DNA from: a virus
Reading direction: 5' to 3' (one strand)
Length of the DNA stretch: 64,000 nucleotides
IMG/VR virus record: IMGVR_UViG_3300031450_000090
Position 1 is the stretch's first letter; each line of letters opens with the position of its first letter. The notes below the pieces were generated by a model. That model was not told the DNA's origin, made no database searches, and was given only the letters and a program-made list of their open reading frames with translations. The translations under genes and the position numbers were made by a program. Positions 11,680-30,176 of this stretch are shown one piece after another.

Positions 11680-12106
11680 GATCCCGGCCTCCGCCGCTGC
11701 CGATAACCCGGCTTCCCGGAAGCTATCCGCCCCGATCGAGGCGGCGCTCACCGAGCTGATCGGCGTCGCCCTGGAAGCGGTCGGGACGCACGATCCCCAC
11801 CTGGCGGACGCGCTCGCCGCCGTCCGCGCGGCGGTCGCGCGCGAGGTTCTTCCTGCTGAGATGACGCCCGAGATTGGCGAGGTCCTCGGCCTTATGAACT
11901 TCCGAACGGGCCCGCTCGCGCACCTGTTCCGTGCTGCCGGTGCCGACATCCCGACGAAGTGCGAGGCGGAGCAGGCCTTCGTGCTGTTCCGCTTCATGCA
12001 CCTCGCCCTGCAGCACGGTGCCGGATGGCGCGAGGCGTCCATCGTCGACGTTCAGGCAGCCCTCGCGATCGCGAAGACCAAGCTACCGGCCGAGCCGGCG
12101 TCATGA
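11666..12106 (+). CDS. Hypothetical protein carrying the D-N-x-x-S-R-K site near its N-terminus
   Basis: GGAGG RBS; contains the 28-bp element at 11696. Confidence 0.7.
   Translation: MSRSEIPASAAADNPASRKLSAPIEAALTELIGVALEAVGTHDPHLADALAAVRAAVAREVLPAEMTPEIGEVLGLMNFRTGPLAHLFRAAGADIPTKCEAEQAFVLFRFMHLALQHGAGWREASIVDVQAALAIAKTKLPAEPAS
11696..11723 (+). repeat. dif/lox-like 28-bp element, copy a
   Basis: GCTGCCGATAA-CCCGGC-TTCCCGGAAGC. Confidence 0.85.
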
Positions 12107-12915
12107 GCGCCCTGGCTCCCTCACCCGCGCCCCGCGCGCTGCGCGTGGACCCCGACCTGGTCGCGATTCTCGCCGCAGCGACGGTCGATGGGGACGCCCT
12201 CACGCTCGCGGAGACGCTCAGCTCCAACCTCTACCGGCGCGTCGACAACGTGCTCGTCGCCGCCGGCGGGCGCTGGGACCGCAAGAGGGCCGCGCATGTG
12301 TTCCCCAGCGGCGACGCGGCGGTCGCGATCGAGCCGATCCTGGTCGCCGGCACGCTGGTGTTGCCGCCCGACCTCGGCTGGTTCGCGACTCCCCCGGCGC
12401 TGGCGGCCGAGCTGGTGCGGCGCAGCGGCGCTCGCCCGGGTTCGCGCCTGCTCGAGCCGTCGGCCGGGGAGGGCGCCATCGTGCTGGCCGCCCTGGCGGC
12501 CGGTGCCCGGGTCGCGGCCATGGAACTCGACCTCCTCCGCTTCGCGAGCTTGTGCAAGCTGGCCGACGATCCTGCGCGGCTTCTCTGCCAGCAGGGCGAT
12601 TTCCTCGCGATGAACCTCCTGTCCAACTTCGAGCAGGTGGTCATGAACCCGCCGTTCGCGCCGCGGCGAACGGACGTCTTCCACGTTCGCCACGCCTTCG
12701 GTTCATTGTGCCCAGGCGGCCGCCTTGTGGCGGTGATGAGCGCCGGCACGTTGTTCCGCGCCGATCGGGAGACGGACGCCTTCCGCGACCTCGTCCACGG
12801 CCTCCGCGGCACGATCGAGCCGCTGCCGGACGACAGCTTTGCGGCCTCCGGCACGCATGTCCGGACCGTGGTGGTCACGGTCGACATGCCTCGAACAGCA
12901 GGGAGCATCCGATGA
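12103..12915 (+). CDS. Class I SAM-dependent N6-adenine DNA methyltransferase
   Basis: GWFATP, LEPSAGEG (motif I), VMNPPF (motif IV), GGRLVAVM. Confidence 0.85.
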   Translation: MSALAPSPAPRALRVDPDLVAILAAATVDGDALTLAETLSSNLYRRVDNVLVAAGGRWDRKRAAHVFPSGDAAVAIEPILVAGTLVLPPDLGWFATPPALAAELVRRSGARPGSRLLEPSAGEGAIVLAALAAGARVAAMELDLLRFASLCKLADDPARLLCQQGDFLAMNLLSNFEQVVMNPPFAPRRTDVFHVRHAFGSLCPGGRLVAVMSAGTLFRADRETDAFRDLVHGLRGTIEPLPDDSFAASGTHVRTVVVTVDMPRTAGSIR

Positions 12916-13169
12916 CTGAGCACCCAGGCCTGCCCGTCGCCGGCTATCGCCCGCAGAACGACGCCAAGGTCGCGACCGTCAACGTCAACAAAGAGCTTGA
13001 GGAACGCGTGCTCCGCCAGATCGACGCGATGGCGGCCGACATGGAAGCCGGCCACGATCCACGCATGATCGCCGTGGCGCGCACCGGCATCCAGGACGCC
13101 TTCATGTGGCTCAACAGGGCGGTGTTTCGGCCCGCCCGTGTCAGCTTGCCGGAGGACGCCGGGCGATGA
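12912..13169 (+). CDS. acb2: Acb2-like cyclic-oligonucleotide sponge (anti-CBASS family)
   Basis: 85 aa; GYR...N..KEL...D.R.+A+A+T.IQ..FMWLNRAV..P matches the remembered Acb2 pattern. Hidden as the tail of track ORF 11931..13169. Confidence 0.75.
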   Translation: MTEHPGLPVAGYRPQNDAKVATVNVNKELEERVLRQIDAMAADMEAGHDPRMIAVARTGIQDAFMWLNRAVFRPARVSLPEDAGR

Positions 13170-13516
13170 CCGGCAGCGCCCTCGTTTCAACCACGTTCAC
13201 CGTGCTCCGGGTCCTCGGTGGACCGAGGAAGCACACGATCGACCTGCCGCTCAACCCCGGGCTTGACGCGCTGCGCGCCGTGCTGAACCCGTTGCTCGAC
13301 GGCAAAAACTTCGAGCACGTCAGCGTGCTTAACGAGGGTCGGGCCGCCGACATGTTCGTCGACGAGACCGGTGCCTGTGACGGTCAGGTCCGCAACGACG
13401 CGGCGACCAAGATCTATCGGGCCGCGGAGCTGCGCCGCAACCCGAAGACCAACCCCGAGTCCCTTCCCGCCATCTACGGCACTGCGATCCTCGTCGACCG
13501 CCGGGTCTGGTCGTGA
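13166..13516 (+). CDS. DUF3846-like hypothetical protein
   Basis: MFVDETG...N..ATKIY...IYGTAIL pattern; ATG at 13166. Confidence 0.6.
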   Translation: MTGSALVSTTFTVLRVLGGPRKHTIDLPLNPGLDALRAVLNPLLDGKNFEHVSVLNEGRAADMFVDETGACDGQVRNDAATKIYRAAELRRNPKTNPESLPAIYGTAILVDRRVWS

Positions 13517-13749
13517 GGAGCGCCGCGATGCGCCAGCCCGAGCCGTGCCCCGAGTTCGACTGCACAAGCTGCGGCCGGACCATGATCGTGCTGGTCGGCG
13601 AAACGCCGAACCAGCCGCGCTGCCACCGCTGCCGCATGCTGCCCGGCTGGCACAAGAGGCCCGAGGTCGTCGCGCTGTGTAACCTCAACGGGCAGCTGCT
13701 CGCGCCGGTCGCCGCGGGCGCCGCTGAGAACGGGAGGACGCTGCAGTGA
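13513..13749 (+). CDS. Small zinc-finger protein
   Basis: CTSC...CHRC; GTGA overlaps. Confidence 0.6.
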   Translation: MRSAAMRQPEPCPEFDCTSCGRTMIVLVGETPNQPRCHRCRMLPGWHKRPEVVALCNLNGQLLAPVAAGAAENGRTLQ

Positions 13750-14411
13750 GCACATCCGATAAACTCCCTTCCCGGAAGCTTACGACCAACCAATCGCCAG
13801 GGCTGCTTTTCCTGGTCGCCGCCAAGGCGGCAATGCCGCGGACGCTGGGCAAGGCCGTGCGTGTCGCGGCCATGAACGACGTCCTGCGCCTCGCGATCGG
13901 GTGCCGCATGGTCTTCGGCCGCGGCGAGGGCGCTGGGCTGAGGCAGCTCGACTTGCAAACGTGTGCAGGGGTTTTCCGCACTCTCGATGAGCACTGGTAT
14001 ACCCAGGCCTGCCGCGTCGGCGGCACCTACGCGGCCATGTGGGAAGCCCACCACGGGTGCAAACCGTGGATCGCCCCGGACGTCATCGTCGGCCGCGACT
14101 CGCGTGACCAGGCTCGGGACAGTCGGGTGGCGCCCAACATGGCGCTGCTGCTGCCCAGCAGCGGCGACGACGATCCGGACCTGCCGCGTCACGGCAGCGC
14201 GTCCGAGGTCTGGTGGTGCACGTCGCTCGATCGCACCGCCGATACGATCACGCTGTGCCGGTACCGGCTCCTGCCCGACAAGCGCTGGCCGACGATCCGC
14301 GAGGGTCAGCCTCGGCGAAGATGCGTGCTCGATCGCTCGGCATGGGCCGAACTCTTCCGCAAGACCTCCACCAAACCCGCCGCAGCGGCCGAGTCGGGAA
14401 TCGCAGCATGA
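13746..14411 (+). CDS. Hypothetical protein starting MSTSDKLPSRK
   Basis: Coupled start; contains the 28-bp element at codons 3-12. Confidence 0.7.
   Translation: MSTSDKLPSRKLTTNQSPGLLFLVAAKAAMPRTLGKAVRVAAMNDVLRLAIGCRMVFGRGEGAGLRQLDLQTCAGVFRTLDEHWYTQACRVGGTYAAMWEAHHGCKPWIAPDVIVGRDSRDQARDSRVAPNMALLLPSSGDDDPDLPRHGSASEVWWCTSLDRTADTITLCRYRLLPDKRWPTIREGQPRRRCVLDRSAWAELFRKTSTKPAAAAESGIAA
13752..13779 (+). repeat. dif/lox-like element, copy b
   Basis: ACATCCGATAA-ACTCCC-TTCCCGGAAGC. Confidence 0.85.
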
Positions 14412-14812
14412 GCCATCAACCGAGCCACCCCGTCACGCCCGGTGGGCTCTCCGAGCAGGATCGCGATCGCGTCCATGCGCTCGCCGACAAGGGCTGGGGC
14501 TCGAGCCGGATCGCGCGCGCGATCTCGAAGCATCCGTCGACCGTCTACTGGTTCATGTGCTGTGATGGTCTGATTGCCGTGAGGCAGGTCGACCTCCCGA
14601 AAGTGTACGCCCGGGGCGGGCGCGTCGTCCGGCGGTTCGGCCGCGAGGAGGACGCCTTCATCGTCGCGCTCCGGCTGCAGGGCTATTCGGCGAGGGCGAT
14701 CGCTGAGCTCGCGTCCAAGCGCTTCGGCTACACGCGCCAACCGCACAGCGTGACGGTTCGGCTGGTGATGCTGGCTGCCCTCGACGACAACGGCCTGCAG
14801 GAGGCCGCATGA
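14408..14812 (+). CDS. Tandem-HTH DNA-binding protein
   Basis: KGWGSSRIARAISKHPSTVYW and QGYSARAIAELAS..HSVTVRL. Confidence 0.7.
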   Translation: MSHQPSHPVTPGGLSEQDRDRVHALADKGWGSSRIARAISKHPSTVYWFMCCDGLIAVRQVDLPKVYARGGRVVRRFGREEDAFIVALRLQGYSARAIAELASKRFGYTRQPHSVTVRLVMLAALDDNGLQEAA

Positions 14813-15414
14813 CTACCGATAAGCTTGCTTCCCGGAACCAACGCGTCCTCGGTACCGAGCTCGAAGGTTACTTCGACACGCGCGCGCATAAGGACGACAT
14901 CGCGGGGCCGTTCAACTTCCCGGCGCCCAAGTGGGAGACGACGTGGGCGGACAGAGAGCCCGCACGCGACTGTCTGATGCGGTGCACCCACTGCGGCTCC
15001 GTGCACCCGCGAGACCTCCTCGCAGCCGTCGAGGCCGGCGCACGCCTTCGGGTCGCCGACATGAAATACGGCTGGCCGCATAAGTTCTATGTCAGCGGCG
15101 TGCCGAACGACCTGGCCGGCCAGCAAGTCATTGTCGGGGGTATCTCCGGCCCGACGACGGACAGGGCTGGGAGGCTTTGCCGCGACGACCTCACGCCCGA
15201 GGAAATCGCGAAGGGTCACTACAGCCGAGACACCTACGGCAAGGCTCCACCCGACGCTGTTGTGAAGTTCTACTCCGAACATCTCGCGGATGCAGACATG
15301 CAAACACCGGGGGGCGAGATGACTCAACTCGCCCGTCTAATGGCGGAAGCTTCGGGCTACGTCTTCGAAGTTCGTGAAGATTACCGGGTCTATTACAGGC
15401 GGGTGCACACATGA
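14809..15414 (+). CDS. Hypothetical phage protein starting MTTDKLASRN (CxHCGS motif)
   Basis: ATGA-coupled; contains element copy c. Confidence 0.7.
   Translation: MTTDKLASRNQRVLGTELEGYFDTRAHKDDIAGPFNFPAPKWETTWADREPARDCLMRCTHCGSVHPRDLLAAVEAGARLRVADMKYGWPHKFYVSGVPNDLAGQQVIVGGISGPTTDRAGRLCRDDLTPEEIAKGHYSRDTYGKAPPDAVVKFYSEHLADADMQTPGGEMTQLARLMAEASGYVFEVREDYRVYYRRVHT
14812..14839 (+). repeat. dif/lox-like element, copy c
   Basis: ACTACCGATAA-GCTTGC-TTCCCGGAACC. Confidence 0.85.
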
Positions 15415-16010
15415 CCGCTTCCGATAAGAGTTCTTCCCGGAAGCAATCCGTCAACGAGCCGGCGATCGTCGTCGACCTCGGACATGGTCGTTGGACAATC
15501 GACCGCGGGTCCCATGAGGGACATGAGGCGCTCTTCTTCGAGCCGGCACCGGCGCCTGGCCCCTCCATGCAGCCGGCGCCCCACTTCGCTCCGCTCGACA
15601 TGATGCAGCCGGGGACGGTCTGCATCCGCTTCGACAGGCCGGAGGCCATGACCTTCCTGCGGTGGTGGCTGGCCTACGTGCAGGATCCTGAGAACACCCC
15701 TGCCAGCCCGGGGGACTTCCGGCCCATCCAGCAGTCAGCAGAGATCGGAACGCCCGCCGCTCGGTGGCGCGCCGAGGGCCGGCCCGACCCGCACGGCGAT
15801 CGCTACGAATGCGACCGCACCAAGCTCTGCATGGGTTACCTCACGGACGATGAACTCGCGAACGCCGTGTTCGTGCACAACCACAGCAACTTCGATCTTA
15901 GCGCCATCGTGATGTCCATCGCCCTCCTGACGGCCGCGAAGGATCGCATACGCTGGTTCTCGCGCCAGCTGGAGGCGGCCAAGTGCGCCGCCGTGGCGGA
16001 GGCAGACTGA
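15411..16010 (+). CDS. Hypothetical phage protein starting MTASDKSSSRK, probably two domains
   Basis: C-terminal WRAEGRPDPHG..Y.C.R..L.MG.LTDDELANAVF motif recalled from phage hypotheticals; contains element copy d. Confidence 0.7.
   Translation: MTASDKSSSRKQSVNEPAIVVDLGHGRWTIDRGSHEGHEALFFEPAPAPGPSMQPAPHFAPLDMMQPGTVCIRFDRPEAMTFLRWWLAYVQDPENTPASPGDFRPIQQSAEIGTPAARWRAEGRPDPHGDRYECDRTKLCMGYLTDDELANAVFVHNHSNFDLSAIVMSIALLTAAKDRIRWFSRQLEAAKCAAVAEAD
15417..15444 (+). repeat. dif/lox-like element, copy d
   Basis: GCTTCCGATAA-GAGTTC-TTCCCGGAAGC. Confidence 0.9.
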
Positions 16011-16312
16011 TGCCGAGGATCACGATCAGCTTCGAGTTAAGCGCGACCAGCGCTCTCGTGCTCACAGAGAGTGAGATGCGCGCCCTCGACGCTCTCACCG
16101 GCTATGGCGACGACGCTTTTCTGGAAGCTTTCAAGGAAAAGCTAGGCGCAGCCTACATCCGCGGCCACGAAGGCGGCCTCCGATCGTTTTTTGAAGCCGT
16201 CAGGCGAGACGTCCTGCCGGCTCTGCGCCTGGTCGACCAGGCCCGTCGCGACCTTCAGGAAGCTGACCGCCTTCGGCTCGAAGCTCGCCACCAGAAGGGA
16301 GCTGCAGCATGA
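16010..16312 (+). CDS. Hypothetical protein
   Basis: ATG at 16010 in a TGATG overlap. Confidence 0.65.
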   Translation: MPRITISFELSATSALVLTESEMRALDALTGYGDDAFLEAFKEKLGAAYIRGHEGGLRSFFEAVRRDVLPALRLVDQARRDLQEADRLRLEARHQKGAAA

Positions 16313-16548
16313 TCGCTTCCGATAAGTCCCCTTCCCGGAAGGAGCCCGAGTCCGAAGTGCTCGTCCAACTGCGCGCCGCCCGAGAGTGGCTGCAGGTCCT
16401 TATCGACGCGGGCAACATCGATCCCGAGGAAACCGTCTTCGCGGTCTCGGTCCGATCGGCCAAGGGCGAGGAGGAAAGGGCCACGGCCACCCTGGCGCAC
16501 TGTCTTGCGCAGATCGACGCCGCGATAGTGGGGGCTGCCCATGGCTGA
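16309..16548 (+). CDS. Hypothetical protein starting MIASDKSPSRK
   Basis: ATGA-coupled; contains element copy e. Confidence 0.65.
   Translation: MIASDKSPSRKEPESEVLVQLRAAREWLQVLIDAGNIDPEETVFAVSVRSAKGEEERATATLAHCLAQIDAAIVGAAHG
16315..16342 (+). repeat. dif/lox-like element, copy e
   Basis: GCTTCCGATAA-GTCCCC-TTCCCGGAAGG. Confidence 0.9.
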
Positions 16549-17605
16549 CGGCAGCAAGATCGAGTGGACCGACGCCACCTGGAATCCGGTCACCGGCTGT
16601 TCGGTGGTCTCGCCGGGGTGCACGAACTGCTACGCGATGCGACTCGCTGGGACGCGGATGCGCGGCCATGCCTCGCGTTTGGGGCTCACTGTCGAAACTA
16701 AGGCGGGCCCTGTTTGGAACGGGCTGGTGCGCTTCAACGAGGCGTGGCTCGACCAGCCGCTCCGGTGGAAGCGGCCGCGCCGGGTTTTCGTGTGCGCGCA
16801 CGGCGACCTGTTCCACGAGGGCGTGCCGAATGCCTGGCTCGATCGCGTGTTCGCCGTCATGGCGCTGGCGCCGCAGCACAGCTTCCAGGTGCTGACGAAG
16901 CGCGCGGCGCGGATGCGGGCCTATATCGACGGTCTTACTCGGCAGGAGTGGTGGAAGGCTCGTCTTGGAGAGGCGTCCGGCGCGGAGATGCGTCGCGGCG
17001 ATGGCACATTCCCGACGTGGCCTCTTTCTAACGTCTGGCTCGGCGTCTCGGCCGAGGATCAGCAGCGCGCCGACGAGCGCGTTCCGGACCTGCTGGCAAC
17101 GCCGTCGGCAGTGCGCTTCGCGTCGGCCGAGCCGCTGCTCGGGCCGATCGACTTCACCAAGCTTCAGACCTTCGGGGGCGGCCAGCTCGACGCACTGCGT
17201 GGGATGTGGGCCACGTATCCGATCGTCGAGAGGGATGGCAGAGCAGCCCTGCTGACCAAGGCGCTGGCACGGCTCGACCAGATCATCGTCGGCGGTGAAT
17301 CCGGCCCAGGTTCCCGGCCGATGCACCAGCAATGGGCCGGCAGCATCCGTGACCAGTGCGCGTCCGCCGCGGCCGCGTTCTTCTTCAAGCAATGGGGCGA
17401 ATGGCTCCCGGTGACGCTGTACGATATCGACGGCGGCCCCGAGGTCTTCGAGGCTGACGACGGGCGTCCGGAAGGGGCGTTCGCAGGTGTGCACGTCGCG
17501 ACGCGCGCGCTCGCCGGCCAGTGGTTTGCCTGTGTCGGCAAGGCCCGCGCCGGCCGCCTTCTTGACGGCCGCATCCACGACGCCATGCCGGGAGTCGCCG
17601 CGTGA
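16541..17605 (+). CDS. Phage Gp37/Gp68 family (DUF5131), radical-SAM-like
   Basis: SKIEWTDATWNPVTGC...PGCTNCYA, FVCAHGDLFHE, FQVLTKR, NVWLGVSAEDQ, SAEPLLG, IVGGESG, FFFKQWG. Confidence 0.9.
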   Translation: MADGSKIEWTDATWNPVTGCSVVSPGCTNCYAMRLAGTRMRGHASRLGLTVETKAGPVWNGLVRFNEAWLDQPLRWKRPRRVFVCAHGDLFHEGVPNAWLDRVFAVMALAPQHSFQVLTKRAARMRAYIDGLTRQEWWKARLGEASGAEMRRGDGTFPTWPLSNVWLGVSAEDQQRADERVPDLLATPSAVRFASAEPLLGPIDFTKLQTFGGGQLDALRGMWATYPIVERDGRAALLTKALARLDQIIVGGESGPGSRPMHQQWAGSIRDQCASAAAAFFFKQWGEWLPVTLYDIDGGPEVFEADDGRPEGAFAGVHVATRALAGQWFACVGKARAGRLLDGRIHDAMPGVAA

Positions 17606-18145
17606 GCGCGGTGCTGTCGCCCTGCGGGCGCTACCGCTACCGGCTCGACCGCTCCGTCGACCTCTTGGGCCGCGGCACCGTCGGCTTCTGCCTGCACAAC
17701 CCGTCGACGGCGGACGCTGACTGTCGACGACCCGACCACGACCCGCTGCATCGGCTTCGCCCGGGGGTTCGGTGCCGCGCGCCTCGTCATCGTCAATCCC
17801 TGGGCGGGTCGTGCCACGTGGTCACGCGACCTGTGGGCCATGGCCGAGCCGGTCGGGCCCGACAATTCCCGCCACATCGCCGAGGCTGCGGCCGAGATCG
17901 CCGTCTCGTGCGGCTTCATGGTGGTGGGATGGGGCGCCGTGACGCCGCCGTGGAGGCTGCAGGACGAGGTGGGCGACCGGCTCGCCTTCGTGGCCATGAT
18001 CTTGCGCGCCTCCGCCTGCCCGGTTCTCGCGCTCGGCGTCACCCGCGACGGCTCGCCCAGGCACCCCCTCTACGTCAGCCGCGACACCCGGCCGGTGCTG
18101 TGGCCGGCGCCTCGCCCCGAACCGAAGCAGGGGATCGCCGCATGA
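17602..18145 (+). pseudogene. DUF1643-family gene split by a +1 frameshift near 17722
   Basis: 5' part LSPCGRYRYRL...HNPSTADA. Removing one base restores DVDDPTTTRCIGFARGFG...VNPWA.RAT and joins the frame ending GWG...SPRHPLY. Confidence 0.75.
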
Positions 18146-18165
18146 TCCGCCAGGAGGATCCAGCC

Positions 18166-18378
18166 ATGCCTTCCGATAATCGTCCTTCTCGGAAGCCGCA
18201 AAGGGTCGAGGGTTGCAGTCCGGAGGTCGAGCACCTCTTCGCAGAGTATTGCGCTGCGGCACGGAAAGCCCAGGCCACCCAGATGCTGGCCGACGGCGTC
18301 GCGGCCGGTCAGGCGTGGGCCGCGTTCCTGAACGCCTTCACGGGCGTGCCGGCGCGGACAGAGGCGCTTCACGCATGA
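18166..18378 (+). CDS. Hypothetical protein starting MPSDNRPSRK
   Basis: AGGAGG 8 nt upstream of ATG 18166; contains element copy f. Confidence 0.65.
   Translation: MPSDNRPSRKPQRVEGCSPEVEHLFAEYCAAARKAQATQMLADGVAAGQAWAAFLNAFTGVPARTEALHA
18169..18196 (+). repeat. dif/lox-like element, copy f
   Basis: CCTTCCGATAA-TCGTCC-TTCTCGGAAGC. Confidence 0.85.
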
Positions 18379-21760: not shown

Positions 21761-22129
21761 ATGCGATGGACGCCCGACACCATCCGGGCCAAGGCCGACG
21801 CCATGGAGCGCCGGCTCGACCGCCCCGCCACGGTGACGCCGGAGACGACGCGACTCGTGGTCGAGGCGCTGCGCTTCTTCGCGGCGCGGGGCTTCGCCGA
21901 GCGCCAGGACGGCTACACGATCGAGGTGTGGGACACGCGGCGCGGCACCGTGGCCGAGGAGGTCGGCCAGATCGCCATCCTGGCGGTGGCGGAGGCCGTG
22001 TTCGACGCCGTGCTCGAGGCGCGGCCCGGCTGCCTCGTCACACTGCGCAAGAAGGCGCTCAAGCTGCGGGAGCGCAGGGCGCCGGGCGCGGCCGCTGCGG
22101 ACGGGGAAGCGCCGGGGCAGGGTGAATGA
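21761..22129 (+). CDS. Small hypothetical protein, probably SOS-regulated
   Basis: High-GC coding pattern; SOS box upstream. Confidence 0.65.
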   Translation: MRWTPDTIRAKADAMERRLDRPATVTPETTRLVVEALRFFAARGFAERQDGYTIEVWDTRRGTVAEEVGQIAILAVAEAVFDAVLEARPGCLVTLRKKALKLRERRAPGAAAADGEAPGQGE

Positions 22130-22252
22130 GCAAGGCGAGCTCGAGATCGCCAATGGTCTACCGGATCGGTCAGGTCCTCGCCCTGTTTCAGCCTTGATTG
22201 ATGCTCGCTGCAGGCTTTACCCTAAGGGCTTCAAGGCGTCGGGAGGGCGACC

Positions 22253-23851
22253 ATGCTCGGGGCTCTGGTCAAAACTGCTATCGTCGTCGTCACCCTTGGC
22301 TTGGTCTCGCCTGGCTCAACCGCTGACCTGAAGCAGACCGGAGATCACTACTGGATCGCCCTGGCGAGCCGGCAGACTGCCGACGAGGCGATCACCATCG
22401 CACGCCGTTACACTGCGCTGCGTCCCTCTGTCGTGAGTTCGATCAACGGTTGGTACGCTGTCGTAGTCGGCCCCCGCAGCGTTCAGCAAGGGCTCGGCAA
22501 AACGACGCTGGAAGCGCTGGTGAAGAGCGATTTCATTCCCAGCGACGCCTATCTCACCCGTGGCGATGGCTACGCCGCGTTGGTTTGGAGGACGCCAGCC
22601 TCACCAATTCTCACCAGTTCGAAGTATGACGGCACCACCGATGCCGTCCTCCACAGCGGAGCGTTGCGGGTCATACTGTCGAGCGTACCTGTTGACGGTG
22701 AGGATCGAGCGCCCGTGGCGACCGGGAGTTTCGACGGGAAACCAGCTTTCGCGTTGGTTGTCGGGAAAGAGAACCCAAATCCGAAGCCGGCGTCGGAGGC
22801 GATTACGATCCGTCTCGACCACTCATCGCCGGAACCGCAGGTCGTCCTCACCTACTTCTGGCAGGGGGCTCATTGTTGCACCATGACCCGCATCGCCTCA
22901 ATGCATCCAGACGGCACTTGGAAATTGATTGATGGCGAAACGCTGGATGGCGTGGAAGGGTACCACTTCGAGGACATCACCGGCTCGGGTCAGATCGATC
23001 TGACCAGCACGGACCAAGCCTTTCCGTACACCTTCGCGTCCTACGCCTCGTCGGTGTCGCCGACCCGAATCCACCGTCTCGAGGGTGACCGCATCGTCGA
23101 TGTGACACGGGAGCCGCGCTACTACGAGTTTCTCAAACAGGAGCTCGCCGGCATAGAGAGCGGCGTGAAGCCGAACGATCCCGTCTGGCACGACAACGGC
23201 TTCCTCGCCGGCTGGGTCGCTGCCAAGATGCTGGTTGGCCAAGGGGCGGACGCTTGGTCCAGAATGCTGACGGGGTACGATCGCAGTCCGGATTTCGGTC
23301 CCGAGACGTGCGCGATCGACAAGCCAGTCGACAGTTGTCCCGACGCGAAGAAAATTCGCACTGCATTCCCAATCGCGCTCAAGGCGTTCCTAGTAGAACG
23401 AGGCTACATCCTGAATGCGTCACTGTACCCGACCCCGCCGCAGGATTTCACTCCCGAAGCACCTGTCGTATCAGCGCCGGCCATGCCGTCCGGCGCACCA
23501 CCCGCCCTGCAGCAGTGCACCGATAGCTCGGACACTGCGCGGAAGCTCATCTATCAAATGTTCGTGGGCCGGAAGCTGCAATCCGGAGAGGCATACGACC
23601 TTGTGACGCTTGAAGGCGACACGACACTCGAAGCCAGCGACTCGGGAATCGGCCGCATCGTCTGCGCAGTCACCTACGACCTGAACCTAAAGAGCCTCGT
23701 CGGACGGCTTGCCGAAAACGGCGAGTTCGGTCGTGCAGAGGCGCTGGGGAGGCTGATGCGGCGCTCGGGCACGATGGCCTCGACCCGGGTGCAGTATAGC
23801 GTGAAGCCGACGGCGACCCCGGGTACAAGCTACGTTGAGCTGCTGCGATAA
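22253..23851 (+). CDS. Secreted multidomain moron protein (SPOR-like N-terminal domain, VCBS-like middle)
   Basis: Signal peptide; YWIALAS...GWYAVVVGP; DITGSGQIDL; visibly more AT-rich codon usage than the phage core. Confidence 0.75.
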   Translation: MLGALVKTAIVVVTLGLVSPGSTADLKQTGDHYWIALASRQTADEAITIARRYTALRPSVVSSINGWYAVVVGPRSVQQGLGKTTLEALVKSDFIPSDAYLTRGDGYAALVWRTPASPILTSSKYDGTTDAVLHSGALRVILSSVPVDGEDRAPVATGSFDGKPAFALVVGKENPNPKPASEAITIRLDHSSPEPQVVLTYFWQGAHCCTMTRIASMHPDGTWKLIDGETLDGVEGYHFEDITGSGQIDLTSTDQAFPYTFASYASSVSPTRIHRLEGDRIVDVTREPRYYEFLKQELAGIESGVKPNDPVWHDNGFLAGWVAAKMLVGQGADAWSRMLTGYDRSPDFGPETCAIDKPVDSCPDAKKIRTAFPIALKAFLVERGYILNASLYPTPPQDFTPEAPVVSAPAMPSGAPPALQQCTDSSDTARKLIYQMFVGRKLQSGEAYDLVTLEGDTTLEASDSGIGRIVCAVTYDLNLKSLVGRLAENGEFGRAEALGRLMRRSGTMASTRVQYSVKPTATPGTSYVELLR

Positions 23852-23882
23852 GGCGGGGCGTCCGGACCCAGTGGGTCGGTTT

Positions 23883-23911
23883 GGTTCCGGGAAGGGGGCA
23901 TTATCGGCAGA
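23883..23911 (-). repeat. dif/lox-like element, copy g (7-bp spacer)
   Basis: Minus strand TCTGCCGATAA-TGCCCCC-TTCCCGGAACC; its TAA is the stop codon of ORF 23901..24164. Confidence 0.8.
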
Positions 23912-24164
23912 ACGTCGAGCTGTTCTCCTCCCGCTCGATCGCTCGCTTCTCCCGCGCGATGATCATCTCGACATCGAAGCTTTTCGACTCTCGACGTTCT
24001 TGGATCACGATCACACCAGGGTAGATCTCTTGGGGCATGAAGGTCCTCAAGATCTCTCTGTGAACGTCAGCGTCGGTGTCGGAGAGTTGGTTTTGATGCA
24101 GCACGGTGTGGCTCCTTGATCCGCGGATCGAGTTGCCCGATGCACCATCCATCCTGGACCGCAT
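23901..24164 (-). CDS. Small hypothetical protein bounded by elements g and h
   Basis: 87-aa ORF, AT-richer; element h ends 11 bp before the ATG and element g supplies the stop. Confidence 0.5.
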   Translation of the reverse strand: MRSRMDGASGNSIRGSRSHTVLHQNQLSDTDADVHREILRTFMPQEIYPGVIVIQERRESKSFDVEMIIAREKRAIEREENSSTFCR

Positions 24165-24175
24165 AGCCCTGTTTC

Positions 24176-24203
24176 ACTTCCGGGAAGGCGCGTTATCGGA
24201 AGC
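24176..24203 (-). repeat. dif/lox-like element, copy h
   Basis: Minus strand GCTTCCGATAA-CGCGCC-TTCCCGGAAGT. Confidence 0.9.
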
Positions 24204-24225
24204 GAATCCCGCAGCGCAGCAGTGA

Positions 24226-24411
24226 ATGGTGAGCGACATGGTGGAGCAGCCGACACCGGACGAATACCAGACCCTGATGAACGCGGCTTTGGCCGCATAC
24301 GACGCAAAGATCGTCTCCGTCGAAGTCAGTTCCGACGATCCGACGACCTTTCTCCTCACCTTGAAGCTTCCCGAGCCGCTTCGGCAGATAAGGCTTGTGG
24401 CCGAACCATGA
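24226..24411 (+). CDS. Small acidic hypothetical protein
   Basis: 61-aa ORF coupled (ATGA) to the next gene. Confidence 0.55.
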   Translation: MVSDMVEQPTPDEYQTLMNAALAAYDAKIVSVEVSSDDPTTFLLTLKLPEPLRQIRLVAEP

Positions 24412-24629
24412 TGGACGCCTTGACCTTCTTTGGTCTTTTCGCGGTAACGGCCATGCTCGTCACCTACGCCCTGGAAGAGCGAAGCCCGTGGTTCACGCTT
24501 GCTTTTGCGGGGGCATGCGCTTTGGGATCGTCCTACGGGTTCCTGCAGGGCGCTTGGCCGTTCGGACTCGTTGAGGGCGCCTGGACCATCGTCGCCATGA
24601 ACAAATGGCGGATACGGATGTCAAACTGA
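24408..24629 (+). CDS. Conserved small membrane protein
   Basis: LTFFGLFAVTAMLVTYALE.RS.WF.LAFAGAC.LGS.YGFLQGAWPFGLVE; 2-3 TM helices. Confidence 0.75.
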   Translation: MMDALTFFGLFAVTAMLVTYALEERSPWFTLAFAGACALGSSYGFLQGAWPFGLVEGAWTIVAMNKWRIRMSN

Positions 24630-24643
24630 CCCACTACCGGAGC

Positions 24644-24832
24644 ATGGAAATGGTTGATCGCTACACTAAAATTGTACTCACGATTATTGCGTTAGCGTTG
24701 GTCGCCCTGGTAGCACAGAACGAGCTTCCAAGGGCATGGGCGCAAACTGCCGGTTGCGGCAACTCCTTGTATGCGCAGCAACCATGCACGGTCGTTTGGA
24801 CTTCTCCCTTGCCGGTACGCGTTTATCAGTAA
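24644..24832 (+). CDS. Small single-TM exported protein
   Basis: DRYTKIVLTIIALALVALVA followed by a short Cys-containing tail. Confidence 0.6.
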   Translation: MEMVDRYTKIVLTIIALALVALVAQNELPRAWAQTAGCGNSLYAQQPCTVVWTSPLPVRVYQ

Positions 24833-24904
24833 GGGGTCGCCGTTCAGATTAGGACACTACCGACGTGAGGGCGCCCGTTCATCCCGTTCGTGGTATGTGC
24901 TCTT

Positions 24905-25303: not shown

Positions 25304-25926
25304 AGCCCACGGCCGTGGACCCGATCAACTCGTTCCAGCGCGACGACATGAGTCTTCGGGCGCGCCGGGTCCGCCGCGACATCCGCGGCCGCACGGCGGC
25401 CGTGAAGGGCAGGCGCCCCGACCTGCTCGGCCCCACGAAGGAGCGGTCGGAGAAGCCCGATCATCCGGTGAAGACCGCTGGCGGTTTCTACCGGGCACCG
25501 ATGCCGATCGAGCGCCTGCGTGACCAGAACAAACTCGACCCGCTCCCGCATTTGAACCAGGCGATGTACGAGGCCTCGGAAAAGCTGGTGGGCTATTATG
25601 AGGGCGCACGCCTGGTCGGCGTGAAGGCGCAGGATCTGACCCGGGTCAGCGGCGGCGGCGGCGACAATGACGCGCCGGACCGCGCCGAGCATTGCCGGGC
25701 CGAGTTCAGAAAAGCCTGCGTGCTCATGGGCTGGCCGTCGGCCTTTCCTCATCGCGGGGCAGGGCGGCTGACAGTGGCGGTGGTCTGCGAGGGCCACGGG
25801 GTCAAGCAGGCGGCCGACCTCTACCGGCCCGGTGGCTCCGACGCGGCGCGGCTCGGCGCCGGAATGGATGCGCTCCGCGAGGGGCTGTTCGCTCTCGCCG
25901 TGCATTGGCGTTTGGTGCGCGGCTGA
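25300..25926 (+). CDS. Putative late-gene regulator (DUF6456-like, Q-analog position)
   Basis: ATG 25300; C-terminal VAVVCEG.GV...LREGLFALAVHW; immediately upstream of a promoter-terminator pair. Confidence 0.6.
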   Translation: MKPTAVDPINSFQRDDMSLRARRVRRDIRGRTAAVKGRRPDLLGPTKERSEKPDHPVKTAGGFYRAPMPIERLRDQNKLDPLPHLNQAMYEASEKLVGYYEGARLVGVKAQDLTRVSGGGGDNDAPDRAEHCRAEFRKACVLMGWPSAFPHRGAGRLTVAVVCEGHGVKQAADLYRPGGSDAARLGAGMDALREGLFALAVHWRLVRG

Positions 25927-25935
25927 GTCCGGCCC

Positions 25936-25965
25936 TTGCACTTGGCACCGAGATCTGCCTATAAA
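25936..25965 (+). promoter_or_regulatory. Putative late (PR'-like) promoter
   Basis: TTGCAC-N18-TATAAA. Confidence 0.5.
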
Positions 25966-25985
25966 AGCCCATCGCACAGATTTGC

Positions 25986-26018
25986 GCCCGGAGCCGGAAA
26001 CGGTGATCCGGGCTTTTT
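25986..26018 (+). terminator. Rho-independent terminator (tR'-like)
   Basis: GCCCGGA-GCCG-GAAA-CGGT-GA-TCCGGGC then TTTTT. Confidence 0.7.
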
Positions 26019-26038
26019 CGTCTCTTGAGGGTCGCGAT

Positions 26039-26293
26039 GTGAGCCCTGCCGACGAACTCGCGACCGAGATCCTCAAGATCCGTCGCGACGTGCAGCAGAT
26101 CGACGCGCTAAGCCGCACGCGACCGCACATCTTCGCCGAACAGAAAGACGCGCTGGCCAAGCGCCTCGATGGGGTCGCGACGAAGCTGCGCGTCACCTTC
26201 GGCGGCACGCCCACCCGGTACCGCACGGGCGCGATCGTGAGTGGCAAGGGGCGTCACGTCCAGGTCGAGCGCCGCAGGGCCGGGGCAGGATGA
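26039..26293 (+). CDS. Hypothetical protein
   Basis: GAGGG RBS, GTG 26039; helical. Confidence 0.55.
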   Translation: MSPADELATEILKIRRDVQQIDALSRTRPHIFAEQKDALAKRLDGVATKLRVTFGGTPTRYRTGAIVSGKGRHVQVERRRAGAG

Positions 26294-26451
26294 TCAAGAC
26301 CGAGCGCTTCGCCTATTTCGACAACGACTGCCAGCATCATGAGGTGCTGCAGATTTGGGCCAGGATTCCGGCCACCGGCGTGTGGATGATCGTCTCGACC
26401 CAGGCCGTGACGATCGACCCGAACCGTGTCCCGGTCTTCCCCACCCGCTAA
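26290..26451 (+). CDS. 53-aa hypothetical protein (below the ORF-track cutoff)
   Basis: ATGA overlap; MIKTERFAYFDNDCQHHEVLQIWARIPATGVWMIVSTQAVTIDPNRVPVFPTR. Confidence 0.5.
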   Translation: MIKTERFAYFDNDCQHHEVLQIWARIPATGVWMIVSTQAVTIDPNRVPVFPTR

Positions 26452-26473
26452 CCATGCTCCGGGAGGTCCCGCG

Positions 26474-26713
26474 ATGCGCCAACGCTCCGCGGTGCGGGAC
26501 TACGGCGCGCCGCCGCAGGCCGACGCTCCCGTGCCGGCGCAGCCGGTGCCGATCGTCTGGGTGCTGGCCCAGCTGACCCCGCACTTCGCGGTGCTCGGCG
26601 CCTCGCGCTGCTACTTTCGGCTGCGCGACGAGTTTCTCGACCTGTGCCGCACGGCCGATGCCGAGGGCCGCGTCGTGACCATGGCGCTGCTGCCAACGGA
26701 CCTCCTGCCGTAA
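26474..26713 (+). CDS. Hypothetical protein
   Basis: GGAGGT RBS, ATG 26474. Confidence 0.5.
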   Translation: MRQRSAVRDYGAPPQADAPVPAQPVPIVWVLAQLTPHFAVLGASRCYFRLRDEFLDLCRTADAEGRVVTMALLPTDLLP

Positions 26714-26722
26714 GATTTTCCC

Positions 26723-27703
26723 ATGCCCAACCTGCCGGCTCTCTGCGACAGCAGACCGATCGGCGGGAATGGCGTTGCGACCGCAGATTTCACGGATGTA
26801 CTGAAATCTGCGGTCGACTATGCCCGAGCCGAAACGTCGGAGGGTACGCGCCGCGCCTACGCCAGTGACTGGCGCGCCTTCGAGGCCTGGTGTGCCTCAG
26901 TGGCACAACAGCCGCTGCCGGCCTCCACGGCCGCCGTGGCGGGCTACCTGGCCCATATGGCCGACGCTGGCCTGAAGGCATCCACCATCAATCGCCGCGC
27001 CGCGGCCATCGCCTACCGGCACCGCCTGGCCAACCTGACGCCGCCGACCGGCGCCGAGAGCGTGAAAGCGGTGCAGCGCGGCATCCGCCGCACCATCGGC
27101 ACCCGGGTCGACCGCAAAGCGCCGGCGACCGCCAAGGCCATCAAGGCCATGGTGGCGGCGATCCCCGACACACTCGCCGGCCGGCGCGATCGCGCGCTGC
27201 TGCTGACCGGATTCGCGGCCGCGCTGCGGCGCTCCGAGCTCGTGGCGCTCGACGTCGACGACCTCGAGCGAACGCCGGACGGCCTCTTCGTCCACATCAG
27301 GCACTCGAAGACCGACCAGGAGGGCGCCGGCCACATCGTGGCGGTGCCGCGCGGCGGCAGGCTGAGGCCGGTTCACGCCGTCGAGGACTGGCTCGAGGCG
27401 GCCGGCATCACGACGGGCGCGGTGTTCCGGTCGATCGGCAAGGGCGGGACACTGAGCGGCAAGCGGTTGAGCGACCGCTCCGTCGCCGACATCGTCAAGC
27501 GCTGGGCCGCCGCCGCGAAGCTCGATCCGACGTTGTTCGCGGGGCACTCGCTGCGGGCCGGCTTCGTGACCTCGGCGCTTGAGGCCGGCGCCGACCCGCT
27601 GAAGGTGATGGACGTCACCCGGCACAGCCAGGTGCAGACCCTCAAGGGCTACGACCGCCGCGCCAAGGCCTTCAAGGACCACGCCGGCAAGGGATTCCTG
27701 TGA
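26723..27703 (+). CDS. Cre/TnpS-like tyrosine recombinase
   Basis: N-terminal SAM-like domain TRRAYASDW..FEAWC; catalytic R (LRRSEL), K (SKTDQ), HSLR, H/Y (HSQVQTLKGY). Lies mid-genome, not at a prophage end. Confidence 0.92.
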   Translation: MPNLPALCDSRPIGGNGVATADFTDVLKSAVDYARAETSEGTRRAYASDWRAFEAWCASVAQQPLPASTAAVAGYLAHMADAGLKASTINRRAAAIAYRHRLANLTPPTGAESVKAVQRGIRRTIGTRVDRKAPATAKAIKAMVAAIPDTLAGRRDRALLLTGFAAALRRSELVALDVDDLERTPDGLFVHIRHSKTDQEGAGHIVAVPRGGRLRPVHAVEDWLEAAGITTGAVFRSIGKGGTLSGKRLSDRSVADIVKRWAAAAKLDPTLFAGHSLRAGFVTSALEAGADPLKVMDVTRHSQVQTLKGYDRRAKAFKDHAGKGFL

Positions 27704-27942
27704 TGCAAGTTTCTGCGATACACGCATTGGCCAGCGCAGCCATGGGCCTGTGTGTTCCAGCTCCCGCCGACATGGTGCTGCCGTCCGCGCCGCGGCCGAC
27801 GCGCCGCACCGTGGCGGCCCTGCACCGCTCCATCGGGCGCTCGCGCTACAGCGGTGCCCATACCCGCGCCATCCAGGCCGACCCACATCGCCAGGAATGC
27901 GTCCGTCGACGCCGGCAGGCGGCCCAGCGCGTAGCGGCCTGA
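27700..27942 (+). CDS. Hypothetical protein
   Basis: Overlapping start; weak support. Confidence 0.4.
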   Translation: MMQVSAIHALASAAMGLCVPAPADMVLPSAPRPTRRTVAALHRSIGRSRYSGAHTRAIQADPHRQECVRRRRQAAQRVAA

Positions 27943-27946
27943 GGCC

Positions 27947-28081
27947 GTGCGATCCGTCCTGCTGTGCGCCGCTATCTGGATCGGCGCGAGCGGGGCGGCC
28001 GCGATCGGCATGATGGAGGCCGGCCGCATCCTCTCCGACGCGATCGGCGCCGTCCTGGCCGCCACCGTCTTGGGCTTCTGA
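27947..28081 (+). CDS. 44-aa hydrophobic peptide (below the track cutoff)
   Basis: GAGG, GTG; MRSVLLCAAIWIGASGAAAIGMMEAGRILSDAIGAVLAATVLGF; fills the gap between neighbours. Confidence 0.4.
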   Translation: MRSVLLCAAIWIGASGAAAIGMMEAGRILSDAIGAVLAATVLGF

Positions 28082-28083
28082 CC

Positions 28084-28596
28084 ATGGATTCCTCGCCCTG
28101 GATCGTGCGCCGCGGCCGTGCCGATGCGTGGCAGTACGTCTGGAAGGCAACGAGCGATGCGGCGGCCGTCGTGTGGACCGACCACGAGACAGAGGCGCAG
28201 CGCTTCGGGAGCAAGGCGTCTGCCCTGACCTTGGCGGAACGGATCGCGGCCGGCGGCACCGAGGTCGCGGTGTTCTCGCCGGAAGTCCCCGCGACGCCTG
28301 CCATCGGCAGCTTCGTGTGCAGCTTCACGTCGATCGAGGCCATCCGGTTCGACGGGACCCGCGAATCCGCCCTGGCGATCGCCGCCGCTTTCCCCGGCCG
28401 GGTCGGGCTCGACGTCGCCCAGGACGACGTGCTGCTGGCCCTGTCGCGTGACCCGCTGCTCGGCCGCGAGGCGCTGCGCCCGGTGCCGCCCGGTTCGTGG
28501 CTGGTGGCGCGCTACGGCCGCATGGGCCAGCTCGACCTCTTCACCGACCGCCACTTCCGGGTTCTGCACGAGCCCTATCCCACGAGCCTCGCATGA
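28084..28596 (+). CDS. Hypothetical protein
   Basis: ATG 28084; C-terminal IEAIRFDGT...PGSWLV motif recalled from phage proteins. Confidence 0.6.
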   Translation: MDSSPWIVRRGRADAWQYVWKATSDAAAVVWTDHETEAQRFGSKASALTLAERIAAGGTEVAVFSPEVPATPAIGSFVCSFTSIEAIRFDGTRESALAIAAAFPGRVGLDVAQDDVLLALSRDPLLGREALRPVPPGSWLVARYGRMGQLDLFTDRHFRVLHEPYPTSLA

Positions 28597-28943
28597 GCAC
28601 CGGAAGCGCCGTCAAGGCGATCAACCCCGCGGCCGCGTCGCCGTTCGCCAATTTCAGCAACGGCGCCCTGGCCGACGCCCTGGGCGACCTCGAGGCCACC
28701 ATCGAGCTGGCGCAGAAACGCCAGAAGCTGGCGCGCGACGAGATGACCCGTCGCCACGCCAATTGGCTCGACGGGACGCGCTTCAGCGTCGCCAAGGCCA
28801 CGCTCGACACCCATACGCTGGACGCCAAAGCCGTTCGGCTCGAGATGGGCGACGCCTGGTACGAGGCGCGCCAGAAGCCCGGCACCCGGACCACCTATAC
28901 GGTGACCGCAAAGCCGCTCGAGCAGCTCGGCGTTTCCGCGTGA
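28593..28943 (+). CDS. Hypothetical phage protein
   Basis: ATGA-coupled; coiled coil followed by beta-rich end. Confidence 0.65.
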   Translation: MSTGSAVKAINPAAASPFANFSNGALADALGDLEATIELAQKRQKLARDEMTRRHANWLDGTRFSVAKATLDTHTLDAKAVRLEMGDAWYEARQKPGTRTTYTVTAKPLEQLGVSA

Positions 28944-29197
28944 GCCTACGGTCGAGCCGCTGGCTGATCGAGCTGCGCGAGGGCTTGCGGCCGCAGGGCC
29001 TCTACCTGCATGCGTTCGACGACGGCGGGCAGGAATGGTCTTCCGACTGGGCCCGCGCGCTGCGCTTCGCCACCAAGCAGGACGCCGAGCGCTTCGGCTT
29101 CGACCACCTCGATCGCGACTTCGTCGCCTCCGAGCACATGGCCGTCGATTTGGTCGAGCATCCCGATCGCGAGGACGCGCTGGAAGACGCCTTCTGA
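28940..29197 (+). CDS. Hypothetical protein
   Basis: GTGA-coupled; WSSDWARALRFATKQDAE. Confidence 0.6.
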   Translation: MSLRSSRWLIELREGLRPQGLYLHAFDDGGQEWSSDWARALRFATKQDAERFGFDHLDRDFVASEHMAVDLVEHPDREDALEDAF

Positions 29198-29325
29198 ACC
29201 TACCCTCGTCCGACGAGACGGGGGCCTGGGCTGCGCAAACAGCCCGAGCCGCGAGCTCACAACTCGCATGACCTTGAGCCGGCCGCTCCCGCGGCCATCC
29301 CGCCACCGCACGTGCGGCCGGGTCG

Positions 29326-30117
29326 ATGAGCCTCAAGACCATGCAACAGATCGTTACTGCCCCGGCTCCGCCGGTCTCTCGGCCCGGCGACGTTTGGATG
29401 CTGGGTCGCCACACGCTCGTCTGCGGCGACTCGCGGGATGCCGCCATTGCGGCGCTGGCGCTCCGAGGCGCGGCACCGCAGCTGATGGTGACAGATCCGC
29501 CCTACGGCGTGAGCTACGACCCGGAATGGCGCGTCAGGGCGGCGCGGGCCGGCCTGCTCGGCAAAAGGATCGGCGCCGCCGCGATCGGCAAGGTCGCCAA
29601 CGACGATCGCGCCGACTGGCGCGACGCCTGGGCCCACTATCTGGGCGACGTCGCCTACGTGTGGCACGGCGCCCTCAACGGATGCATCGTTCGGACGAGC
29701 CTCGAAGCGACGGGCTTCCTGATCCGGTCGCAGATCATCTGGGACAAGGGCCGGCTGATCATCAGCCGCGGCCACTACCACTGGCGTCACGAGCCCTGCT
29801 GGTACGCGGTCCGCCGCGGCCGCACCGCCCACTGGGCCGGCGACCGCAAGCAGGTGACGGTGTGGCAGGTGCCGCACCGCCGCAGCGAGACCGGCCACAG
29901 CACGCAGAAGCCCATCGAGGTGATGCAGCGTCCGATGCTGAACCACACGCGGCCGGGTGACTCCGTCTACGACCCTTTCGTGGGCTCGGGCACGACGATC
30001 GTGGCGGCGGAGAGCATCGGGCGTGTTGTCCATGCGATCGAGATCGACCCCGTCTACGTCGACGTCGCGGTCCGCCGCTGGGAGAAGCTGACCGGACGCA
30101 CGGCCGAGAAAGCTTGA
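29326..30117 (+). CDS. Beta-class N4/N6 DNA methyltransferase
   Basis: LGRHTLVCGDS, VTDPPY, HSTQKP, YDPFVGSGTT, IEIDPVY. Confidence 0.92.
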   Translation: MSLKTMQQIVTAPAPPVSRPGDVWMLGRHTLVCGDSRDAAIAALALRGAAPQLMVTDPPYGVSYDPEWRVRAARAGLLGKRIGAAAIGKVANDDRADWRDAWAHYLGDVAYVWHGALNGCIVRTSLEATGFLIRSQIIWDKGRLIISRGHYHWRHEPCWYAVRRGRTAHWAGDRKQVTVWQVPHRRSETGHSTQKPIEVMQRPMLNHTRPGDSVYDPFVGSGTTIVAAESIGRVVHAIEIDPVYVDVAVRRWEKLTGRTAEKA

Positions 30118-30148
30118 AGGGGCGGGGTCACACCCGGGCCGCGGTTTG

Positions 30149-30176
30149 GCTTCCGGGAAGCACAGTTATCGGAAGT
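30149..30176 (-). repeat. dif/lox-like element, copy i (intergenic)
   Basis: Minus strand ACTTCCGATAA-CTGTGC-TTCCCGGAAGC. Confidence 0.9.

Follow-up and report, generated by a model that had tools for sequence, protein, structure and literature searches.

The provirus record IMGVR_UViG_3300031450_000090 of IMG/VR (64.5 kb, about 69% GC; this whole stretch is called the window below) is a temperate phage of GC-rich alphaproteobacteria. It carries nine copies of a short bipartite motif, CTTCCGATAA-N6-TTCCCGGAAG, where none is expected by chance, and no further copies were found in it. Six of the nine are embedded in the 5' ends of early accessory genes, all in the same reading frame and each with a different N6. 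Judging from the sequences, we consider it probable that these copies make up a heterospecific array of lox-like sites at which the phage's own Cre-type recombinase, the presumed catalyst, would reassort accessory genes as in-frame fusions. A wider joint claim, which we put forward more tentatively and regard as quite possible, is that the ordered, mutually incompatible sites, of which each gene junction has one in a fixed frame, are a natural counterpart of recombinase-mediated cassette exchange (RMCE): single genes or whole genome arms would be exchanged with relatives, gene order, translation signals, and frame would be kept, and self-deletion would be avoided.

Copies of the motif and the frame of the coding copies

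The first-pass annotation of this DNA had described nine dispersed sites, six of them fixed in frame at gene starts, and a pattern scan combined with shuffling confirmed this; the coordinates given there were 0 to 1 nt off because of an optional leading base. The window was scanned for CTKCCGATAA-N6-TTCCCGGAAGC with up to three mismatches allowed. Eight copies with a 6-bp spacer and no more than two mismatches were found, six on the plus and two on the minus strand, compared with none in 100 dinucleotide-preserving shuffles of the window. The ninth copy has a spacer of 7 bp. All nine spacers differ from one another, and all nine end in C.

Site a, 11697..11723, plus strand: spacer CCCGGC; codons 11-19 of gene a
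Site b, 13753..13779, plus strand: spacer ACTCCC; begins in codon 3 of gene b
Site c, 14813..14839, plus strand: spacer GCTTGC; begins in codon 2 of gene c
Site d, 15418..15444, plus strand: spacer GAGTTC; begins in codon 3 of gene d
Site e, 16316..16342, plus strand: spacer GTCCCC; begins in codon 3 of gene e
Site f, 18170..18196, plus strand: spacer TCGTCC, right arm TTCTCGG; begins in codon 2 of an open reading frame (ORF) of 70 aa, or in codon 10 if the ATG at 18142 is the start
Site g, 23883..23910, minus strand: 7-bp spacer TGCCCCC
Site h, 24176..24202, minus strand: spacer CGCGCC; intergenic, heading a plus-strand gene block that ends with the recombinase gene
Site i, 30149..30175, minus strand: spacer CTGTGC; intergenic, between an N6_N4 methylase gene and the first gene of the terminase-structural block

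The genes that bear the plus-strand copies, and thus a peptide tag encoded by the site, are the following.

Gene a, 11666..12106, plus strand: tagged; conserved C-terminal domain present in all relatives
Gene b, 13746..14411, plus strand: tagged cargo gene; no family match
Gene c, 14809..15414, plus strand: tagged cargo gene
Gene d, 15411..16010, plus strand: tagged cargo gene
Gene e, 16309..16548, plus strand: tagged cargo gene, 79 aa
Gene f, 18166..18378, plus strand: tagged small ORF; alternative start at 18142

The six plus-strand copies share a single frame, in which they encode the peptide x-S/T-D-K/N-x-x-S-R-K/N 1 to 10 codons past the start codon. The start codon overlaps the upstream stop codon (ATGA or GTGA) in five of the six genes, which lie in an early rightward operon beginning beside the divergent gene of a CI-like S24 repressor (7471-8322, minus strand). 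To judge what is conserved, codons were pooled from 32 coding copies in eight sequences, namely the window and seven related ones. The frame was common to all 32 copies. Asp was encoded by GAT in 30 of 30 cases (GAT makes up 19% of Asp codons genome-wide), Arg by CGG in 29 of 31 (27% genome-wide), and Ser by TCC or TCT in 32 of 32 (TCT accounts for 1.6% of Ser codons genome-wide). Noncoding copies also occur, three in the window and about 30 elsewhere. The conservation is at the level of the nucleotide sequence, as had been proposed earlier and as the codon bias in the 32 coding copies bears out, and not of a peptide or an RNA.

Spacer types and junctions in related phages

Arrays of such sites were found in five phages, the window and the four relatives listed here.

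G001, IMGVR_UViG_3300033181_000002, 58.5 kb: homologous DNA blocks 73-95% identical to the window, mostly 84-92%
j, contig C17 of G006, read in reverse: proteins in common with the window 30-65% identical
L119, ENA contig, 133 kb: more distant relative of the window
L121, ENA contig, 6.8 kb: more distant relative of the window

Further copies lie on the fragments L120, L122, L123, and L145. A megablast comparison of the window with deposited phages returned no close relative, a metagenome scan with b- and e-type spacers found only G001 again, under another name, and four contigs of more distant relatives, with homologues (about 55% identical) of the helix-turn-helix gene (L141-L144), had no sites.

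Within its own genome every array spacer was unique (26 of 26). Between genomes, exact matches at all six spacer positions numbered 1 to 5 per pair, compared with 0.04 to 0.08 expected. The spacer types turned out to be nearly colinear between genomes: a (CCCGGC/CCCTGC/CCCCGC), b (ACTCCC), c (GCTTGC/GCTTTC), d (GAGTTC), and e (GTCCCC). The position of the type TCGTCC/TCGTTC varied, this type standing after b or after e. The spacer of site a recurs in G001 and L122 and, as 1-nt variants, in j, L121, and L123; that of site b is identical in G001, j, L121, and L120; that of site e is identical in G001, j, L119, L120, and L121, where it precedes at least four unrelated gene bodies; and that of site f is near-identical (TCGTTC) in j, L119, and L121. 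The spacer of site d stands in G001 before an unrelated gene. The reverse-strand types g (TGCCCC) and h (CGCGCC) are also common to relatives, the latter being identical in G001, j, and L119 despite unrelated flanks. At the position equivalent to site g, j has a 6-bp spacer, TGCCCC; the window copy has probably been disabled by its one extra C.

Sites of the same type in different phages were 89% identical in the spacer, 88% in the arms, and 39 to 41% in the 10-nt flanks, the background for unrelated sites being 35%; types were assigned partly from the spacers, and the count of exact six-position matches is the noncircular test. Because arms and spacers are conserved and the flanks are near background, the sites are small conserved islands, spacer included. 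The genes around shared spacers are mostly unrelated, and only the body of gene a is conserved in all relatives.

The closest comparison was with L120, which is 99.7 to 99.8% identical to the window over window positions 13756-14847 and 15418-17483. The two differ by exactly two events, both inside sites. L120 lacks 605 bp (14813-15417, the unit of gene c), and site c is joined there to site d in frame, the junction consisting of the left arm and spacer of c, the shared TTCCCGGAA, and then the flank of d. At site b, the two sequences are unrelated upstream of CCGATAA and 99.7% identical from CCGATAA on. The homologue of gene d on L120 (P0001, 98% identical) begins with MTTDKLASRK, which is the tag of site c and not that of site d. 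It is thus a natural in-frame fusion of the tag of one site to a gene body from behind another, that is, an example of the fusion that had been predicted to follow from an exchange of modules. Loss and gain of gene c are both candidates for the c x d event; a recent gain would agree with the GC content of this gene, which at 0.627 is the lowest among the array genes. An assembly chimera is an unlikely source of these junctions, since the shared runs are 10 to 24 nt long and the Logan contigs were presumably built with k=31.

Other comparisons also placed ends of homology at or near sites and gene bodies behind sites of different types. The DNA homology between the window and G001 stops at the last base of site c (block end at 14840), and two more of their blocks end 25 nt from site f (end at 18145, upstream) and 34 nt from site a. 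Three families of gene bodies stand behind different site types in different phages. The body of gene d follows a d-type site in the window, but in L120 and L119 it follows one of type c. For a Cys-rich family, the preceding site is of type b in G001 and of type c in j, and in L119 it has the spacer GACTGT. A third family is preceded by TCGTTC in j and by GAGTTC in G001.

A segment of the window that contains sites g and h (22104-24860) is lower in GC (about 0.62 to 0.65) and has no homologue in G001. It holds a 532-aa ORF without a family match (22253-23851), and the TAA of the left arm of site g serves as the stop codon for a minus-strand ORF of 87 aa (23901-24164).

The Cre-like recombinase, its proposed sites, and the tagged genes

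The window encodes a single tyrosine recombinase.

Recombinase gene, 26723..27703, plus strand: 326 aa; Pfam Phage_integrase plus a SAM-like N-terminal domain

Among all solved structures its best relative is P1 Cre (E value of 8e-14 over the full length, residues 24-312), compared with 2e-4 for XerD. The residues aligned to R173, K201, H289, R292, and Y324 of Cre are conserved, and the position of W315 is occupied by H. The protein scored 61 to 67 bits against the XerC and XerD models, the cut-offs of which are about 330 bits, and 17.7 bits against the integron-integrase model, with a cut-off of 265 bits. The arm CTTCCGATA of the target also resembles the loxP arm CTTCGTATA.

Exact-pattern scans of viral and genome collections gave many chance matches and also about 30 loci, alphaproteobacterial or viral, that have the motif in full; the hosts on these records include Lichenihabitans, Salinarimonas, Methylobacterium, Xanthobacteraceae, Acetobacteraceae, and Sphingomonas. 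At 11 independent phage or prophage loci (L007, L013, L027, L038, L049, L078, L094, L130, L132, L133, and L135), a single full copy is located about 10 to 700 nt upstream of a gene for a recombinase homologue with 45 to 69% identity. At two others (L006 and L014), as with site i in the window, the copy directly follows the N6_N4 methylase gene, and spacers similar to that of site i (CTGNCC) are found in G001, G003, and G005. The consensus of 34 recombinase-linked or full single sites is T-W-R-CTTCCGATAA-N6-TTC(C/T)CGGAAG-Y-A-A, i.e., 13-bp inverted arms around an 8-bp spacer, A-N6-T, with the array motif as its inner part. This lox-like 13-8-13 architecture fits better than the dif-like 11-6-11 geometry proposed in the first-pass annotation. 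In the array copies, the inner 9 to 10 bp of each arm are kept, often together with the outer CAA of the right arm. This CAA directly follows GGAAG/C in many of the coding copies (14840-14845 and 15445-15450 in the window, with equivalents in G001, j, and L119) and is read as K/N-Q; as it corresponds to the Y-A-A outer bases of the 13-bp right arm, the conserved unit in the genes is longer than 27 to 28 bp.

Targets of Cre-type recombinases have been found by their proximity, about 1 kb, to the recombinase gene, and active ones carry G-A-T-A beside the spacer and T at arm position 7 (PMC10250229). Both features are present in the 34-site consensus. In view of the linkage to recombinase genes, the 13-8-13 consensus, and these Cre-type site features, we read the motif as a lox-like target that recombinases of the 26723 family would bind and cleave. 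The earlier placement of the motif among tyrosine-recombinase sites is therefore borne out, with the family apparently being Cre-type and genetically linked to this recombinase. In a Cre site, the six core bases of the spacer are what is exchanged, and two partners have to be identical in them (PMC11260471). By analogy, the recombinase would bind and cut the array copies as well, and spacer identity would govern the choice of partner.

Of the noncoding copies, site i, and perhaps h, is probably an ordinary lox site of a P1-like lifestyle, site i being the candidate for the primary lox-like site. The recombinase gene is located in the middle of the record, away from the prophage ends, and the window showed no second integrase. 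Besides the CI-like repressor, the window encodes a ParB-like protein of 645 aa (785-2722, minus strand), and a ParA gene adjoins the repressor gene in L119 (1139-2905). Taken together, these features suggest that the phage is a plasmid prophage like P1 and is not integrated, although the record is labeled a provirus. Candidates for the ordinary role of the recombinase are dimer resolution, cyclization, or integration.

The mechanism that we propose runs as follows. A full site would consist of the 13-bp inverted arms and the A-N6-T spacer, with N6 corresponding to the 6-bp strand-exchange region of Cre, and six array copies would be embedded in one frame behind the coupled start codons of early accessory genes. 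As N6 differs in every copy of a genome, the copies would rarely recombine with each other, which would limit self-deletion. As N6 types are common to related phages, unique within each, and nearly colinear, genomes residing in the same cell could swap at equivalent sites. A crossover at one equivalent site would exchange everything to one side of it, and crossovers at two would exchange one gene. The gene order, ribosome-binding site, start codon, and frame would be kept, so that the incoming gene would be translated. Rare joins of unlike sites, of the c x d type, would delete or move a single gene.

Further lox-like sites were observed in host genomes. On the contig that carries prophage j (G006:C17, j coordinates 44084-53405), five more sites lie directly beyond the right end of the prophage, ahead of host genes for sugar metabolism. 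Two other G006 contigs carry near-identical sites, CCGATCAT(C/T)GCCCTTCTCGGAA, and CCGATCACTTCCC is found on a third. These may be further elements or attachment sites. A Lichenihabitans chromosome (G007:C11) has perfect sites at 133756, 150131, and 160529 (L117/L118), in the same orientation, 10 to 16 kb apart, and with different spacers, one of which, CAATCC, recurs in the site that stands at the end of prophage j. In the 40 kb read around these sites, no gene for a Cre-like protein was detected.

The tagged cargo genes of the window, G001, j, L119, and L121 could not be assigned a function with Pfam or PHROGs; the exceptions were one sub-threshold match to DUF6551 and one PHROG of unknown function. 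Since these genes have no recognizable families, the labels Acb2 and Gp37/68 given to the cargo in the first-pass annotation, and the anti-defense role attached to it, found no support. The C-terminal domain of the gene d product (residues about 110-190; TPAARWRAEG..PDPHGDRY..LTDDELAN..LLTAAKDRIRWLSR) had 76 matches, including Pseudomonas, Stenotrophomonas, and Beijerinckia proteins; it is without a Pfam family and matches only phrog_36034 (unknown function), and the N-terminal parts of these proteins are variable. In L119 (12363-12431) and j (16398-16466), only 12 codons separate the tag from a stop codon that overlaps the start of a gene of 387 to 393 aa, so that the mini-ORF would act like a coupled leader. 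Upstream of site f, a DUF1643-like gene (17602-18145) is split by a frameshift into an N-terminal part, to about 17860, and a C-terminal part (17840-18145); its G001 homologue (22164-22706) is intact, with 180 aa, and the split gene is either a pseudogene or a sequencing error. The window also contains three DNA methyltransferase-like genes, at 9844-11055 (MT-A70), 11959-12915 (weak UPF0020/N6_Mtase), and 29326-30117 (N6_N4_Mtase).

Competing explanations and known systems

Several observations weigh against an array worked by the recombinase. The window sites are all more than 1 kb from the recombinase gene, the closest at 2.4 to 2.5 kb (h upstream and i downstream), the outer 3 bp of the arms are frequently unconserved in the coding copies, and L119 has decayed arms (TTCTCGGGAC, TTCTCGAAAG, and TTCTCGGGGG). 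The spacer in L145 is ACTGTC in a gene 88% identical to gene b, and TCCCCC in j stands against TCGTTC in L119 between homologous flanks. The c x d event joins unlike spacers, which Cre does poorly, and the shared 10-nt CTTCCCGGAA explains it equally well. Breakpoints had been expected at the sites; the two L120 events and the G001 homology end at site c agree with this, but many mosaic breakpoints are found at ordinary gene boundaries, away from sites. Finally, 401 sampled genomes of the host order contained no further arrays, and the array-bearing phages are only five. The main rival is short-homology recombination at conserved binding sites. According to it, the copies would be operators or roadblocks, for the recombinase or for another regulator, that tune the early genes, and they would be joints merely as the sole sequence common to otherwise unrelated genes, the joining being due to homologous or short-homology recombination, as in the promoter early stem-loop (PeSL) shuffling of T4-type phages. 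The L120 junctions are uninformative here, because all of them lie in 10 to 24 nt of shared sequence and are compatible with either mechanism. The unlike spacers of the c x d event speak for this rival, as does the single orientation of all plus-strand copies relative to transcription, at gene 5' ends, and modular shuffling at conserved regulatory motifs has been documented (PMC2839356). Binding alone, however, leaves unexplained why N6, which is unique within each genome, is conserved between phages to the same degree as the arms and why the frame is fixed in all 32 copies. Furthermore, an operator would be expected between the repressor gene and the early operon, but this intergenic region (8323-8507) contains no copy. 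We regard the binding-site account as rather unlikely, if still the strongest competitor. The repressor stoperators suggested earlier as an alternative are rejected on the same region, which has no copy even at three to four mismatches; in cluster A mycobacteriophages, stoperators are dispersed copies of the operator to which the immunity repressor binds at its own early promoter.

The decayed L119 arms, together with the 7-bp spacer of site g, would also suit the notion that the array copies are pseudo-lox relics, ancestral or spread with duplicated 5' gene ends and now functionless. This is improbable given that arms and spacers are 88 to 89% identical between phages whose shared proteins are only 40 to 65% identical, with flanks at background, and that two recent events fell on sites in a 99.7% identical pair. 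An RNA element has been considered in two forms, a hairpin CUUCCG/CGGAAG after the start codon and antisense RNA from g, h, and i against the 5' ends of genes a to f. The position of the copies directly after start codons, the partial self-complementarity of the arms, and the location of h and i on the opposite strand within plus-strand transcription units would agree with such an element. The hairpin was rejected, since in the 32 copies the changes in its 6-bp stem all break pairs and not one compensatory double change was found; antisense RNA would have no target in the single-site phages, and the type-specific spacers are left unexplained. We hold an RNA role to be very improbable. The lowest probability goes to a functional N-terminal peptide tag, S/T-D-K/N-x-x-S-R-K, serving for example in targeting or turnover: the same frame and a similar peptide in the 32 coding copies are what it predicts, but it is largely refuted by codons fixed against genome usage and by the many copies that are noncoding and recombinase linked. 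A host dif/Xer site likewise has no support, and host Xer, named earlier as a possible driver, is unlikely in that role: the sites travel together with the Cre-like gene of the phage, the product of which scores far below the cut-offs of the XerC/XerD models.

How genes slot into mosaic phage genomes without breaking operons is a long-standing question, and here the joints bear a defined DNA address. If the Cre-type enzyme is responsible, the mosaicism would be programmed and site addressed, and the array would be, to our knowledge, the first known natural multisite heterospecific lox system; we know of heterospecific lox arrays for cassette exchange only as engineered RMCE tools. If true, this reading would place beside integrons and pdif modules a cassette platform that makes translational fusions, offer about ten orthogonal spacers and a new Cre-type enzyme for GC-rich alphaproteobacteria, and give a handle on the fast-turnover accessory genes of prophages, possibly including counter-defense genes.

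A full-text literature search for the motif strings returned nothing relevant. The nearest known system is Cre/loxP of P1, with the other Cre-type pairs Dre/rox, Vika/vox, and the YR series (PMC10250229): Cre is the best solved relative of the recombinase, the targets are alike in their two inverted 13-bp arms and in an 8-bp spacer of which the 6-bp core varies, at loci related to the window a single site usually stands beside the recombinase gene, and the spacer pattern would follow from the rule that Cre partners must have identical spacers (PMC11260471). The known natural systems, however, have one site per genome, whereas here there are eight to nine with distinct spacers, six of them in coding 5' ends in a fixed frame. 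The pdif modules of Acinetobacter plasmids (PMC13141974, PMC6449649) are alike in that many tyrosine-recombinase sites on one replicon bound small accessory modules and that related replicons differ by single modules. They differ in being XerC/XerD sites used by host Xer, intergenic and alternating in orientation; those of the window are lox-like, linked to a phage Cre-type enzyme with low XerC/XerD scores, placed in frame within genes as six direct repeats, and conserved in the order of their types.

Integrons likewise combine a tyrosine recombinase with promoterless accessory cassettes expressed from an upstream promoter, and of the integron-like array proposed in the first-pass annotation this functional analogy stands. 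Its specific features do not: there is no IntI-type integrase, no attI, and no attC-like folded single-strand site, the sites here being double-strand and lox-like, and attC lies at the 3' ends of cassettes, whereas the window sites are at gene 5' ends in frame and would give translational fusions. The PeSL cassettes of T4-type phages (PMC2839356, PMC4122927) resemble the array in that short motifs flank small nonessential early genes in hyperplastic regions and that indels or replacements between close relatives end at the motifs. They are promoter-terminator units recombined by homology, unlike the window motif, which is a putative recombinase target inside coding sequence. In shufflons (Rci/sfx) and in 5'-end inversion systems such as vsa of Mycoplasma pulmonis, in-frame tyrosine-recombinase sites fuse alternative segments to one expressed end. 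Those sites are inverted repeats that serve intramolecular inversion and phase variation; here the coding copies are all direct repeats with unique spacers, each gene has its own start codon, and no inverted arrangement was seen among the relatives. We file the array as a phage-borne, lox-like, directly repeated, intracoding, and position-addressed variant of the tyrosine-recombinase cassette systems.

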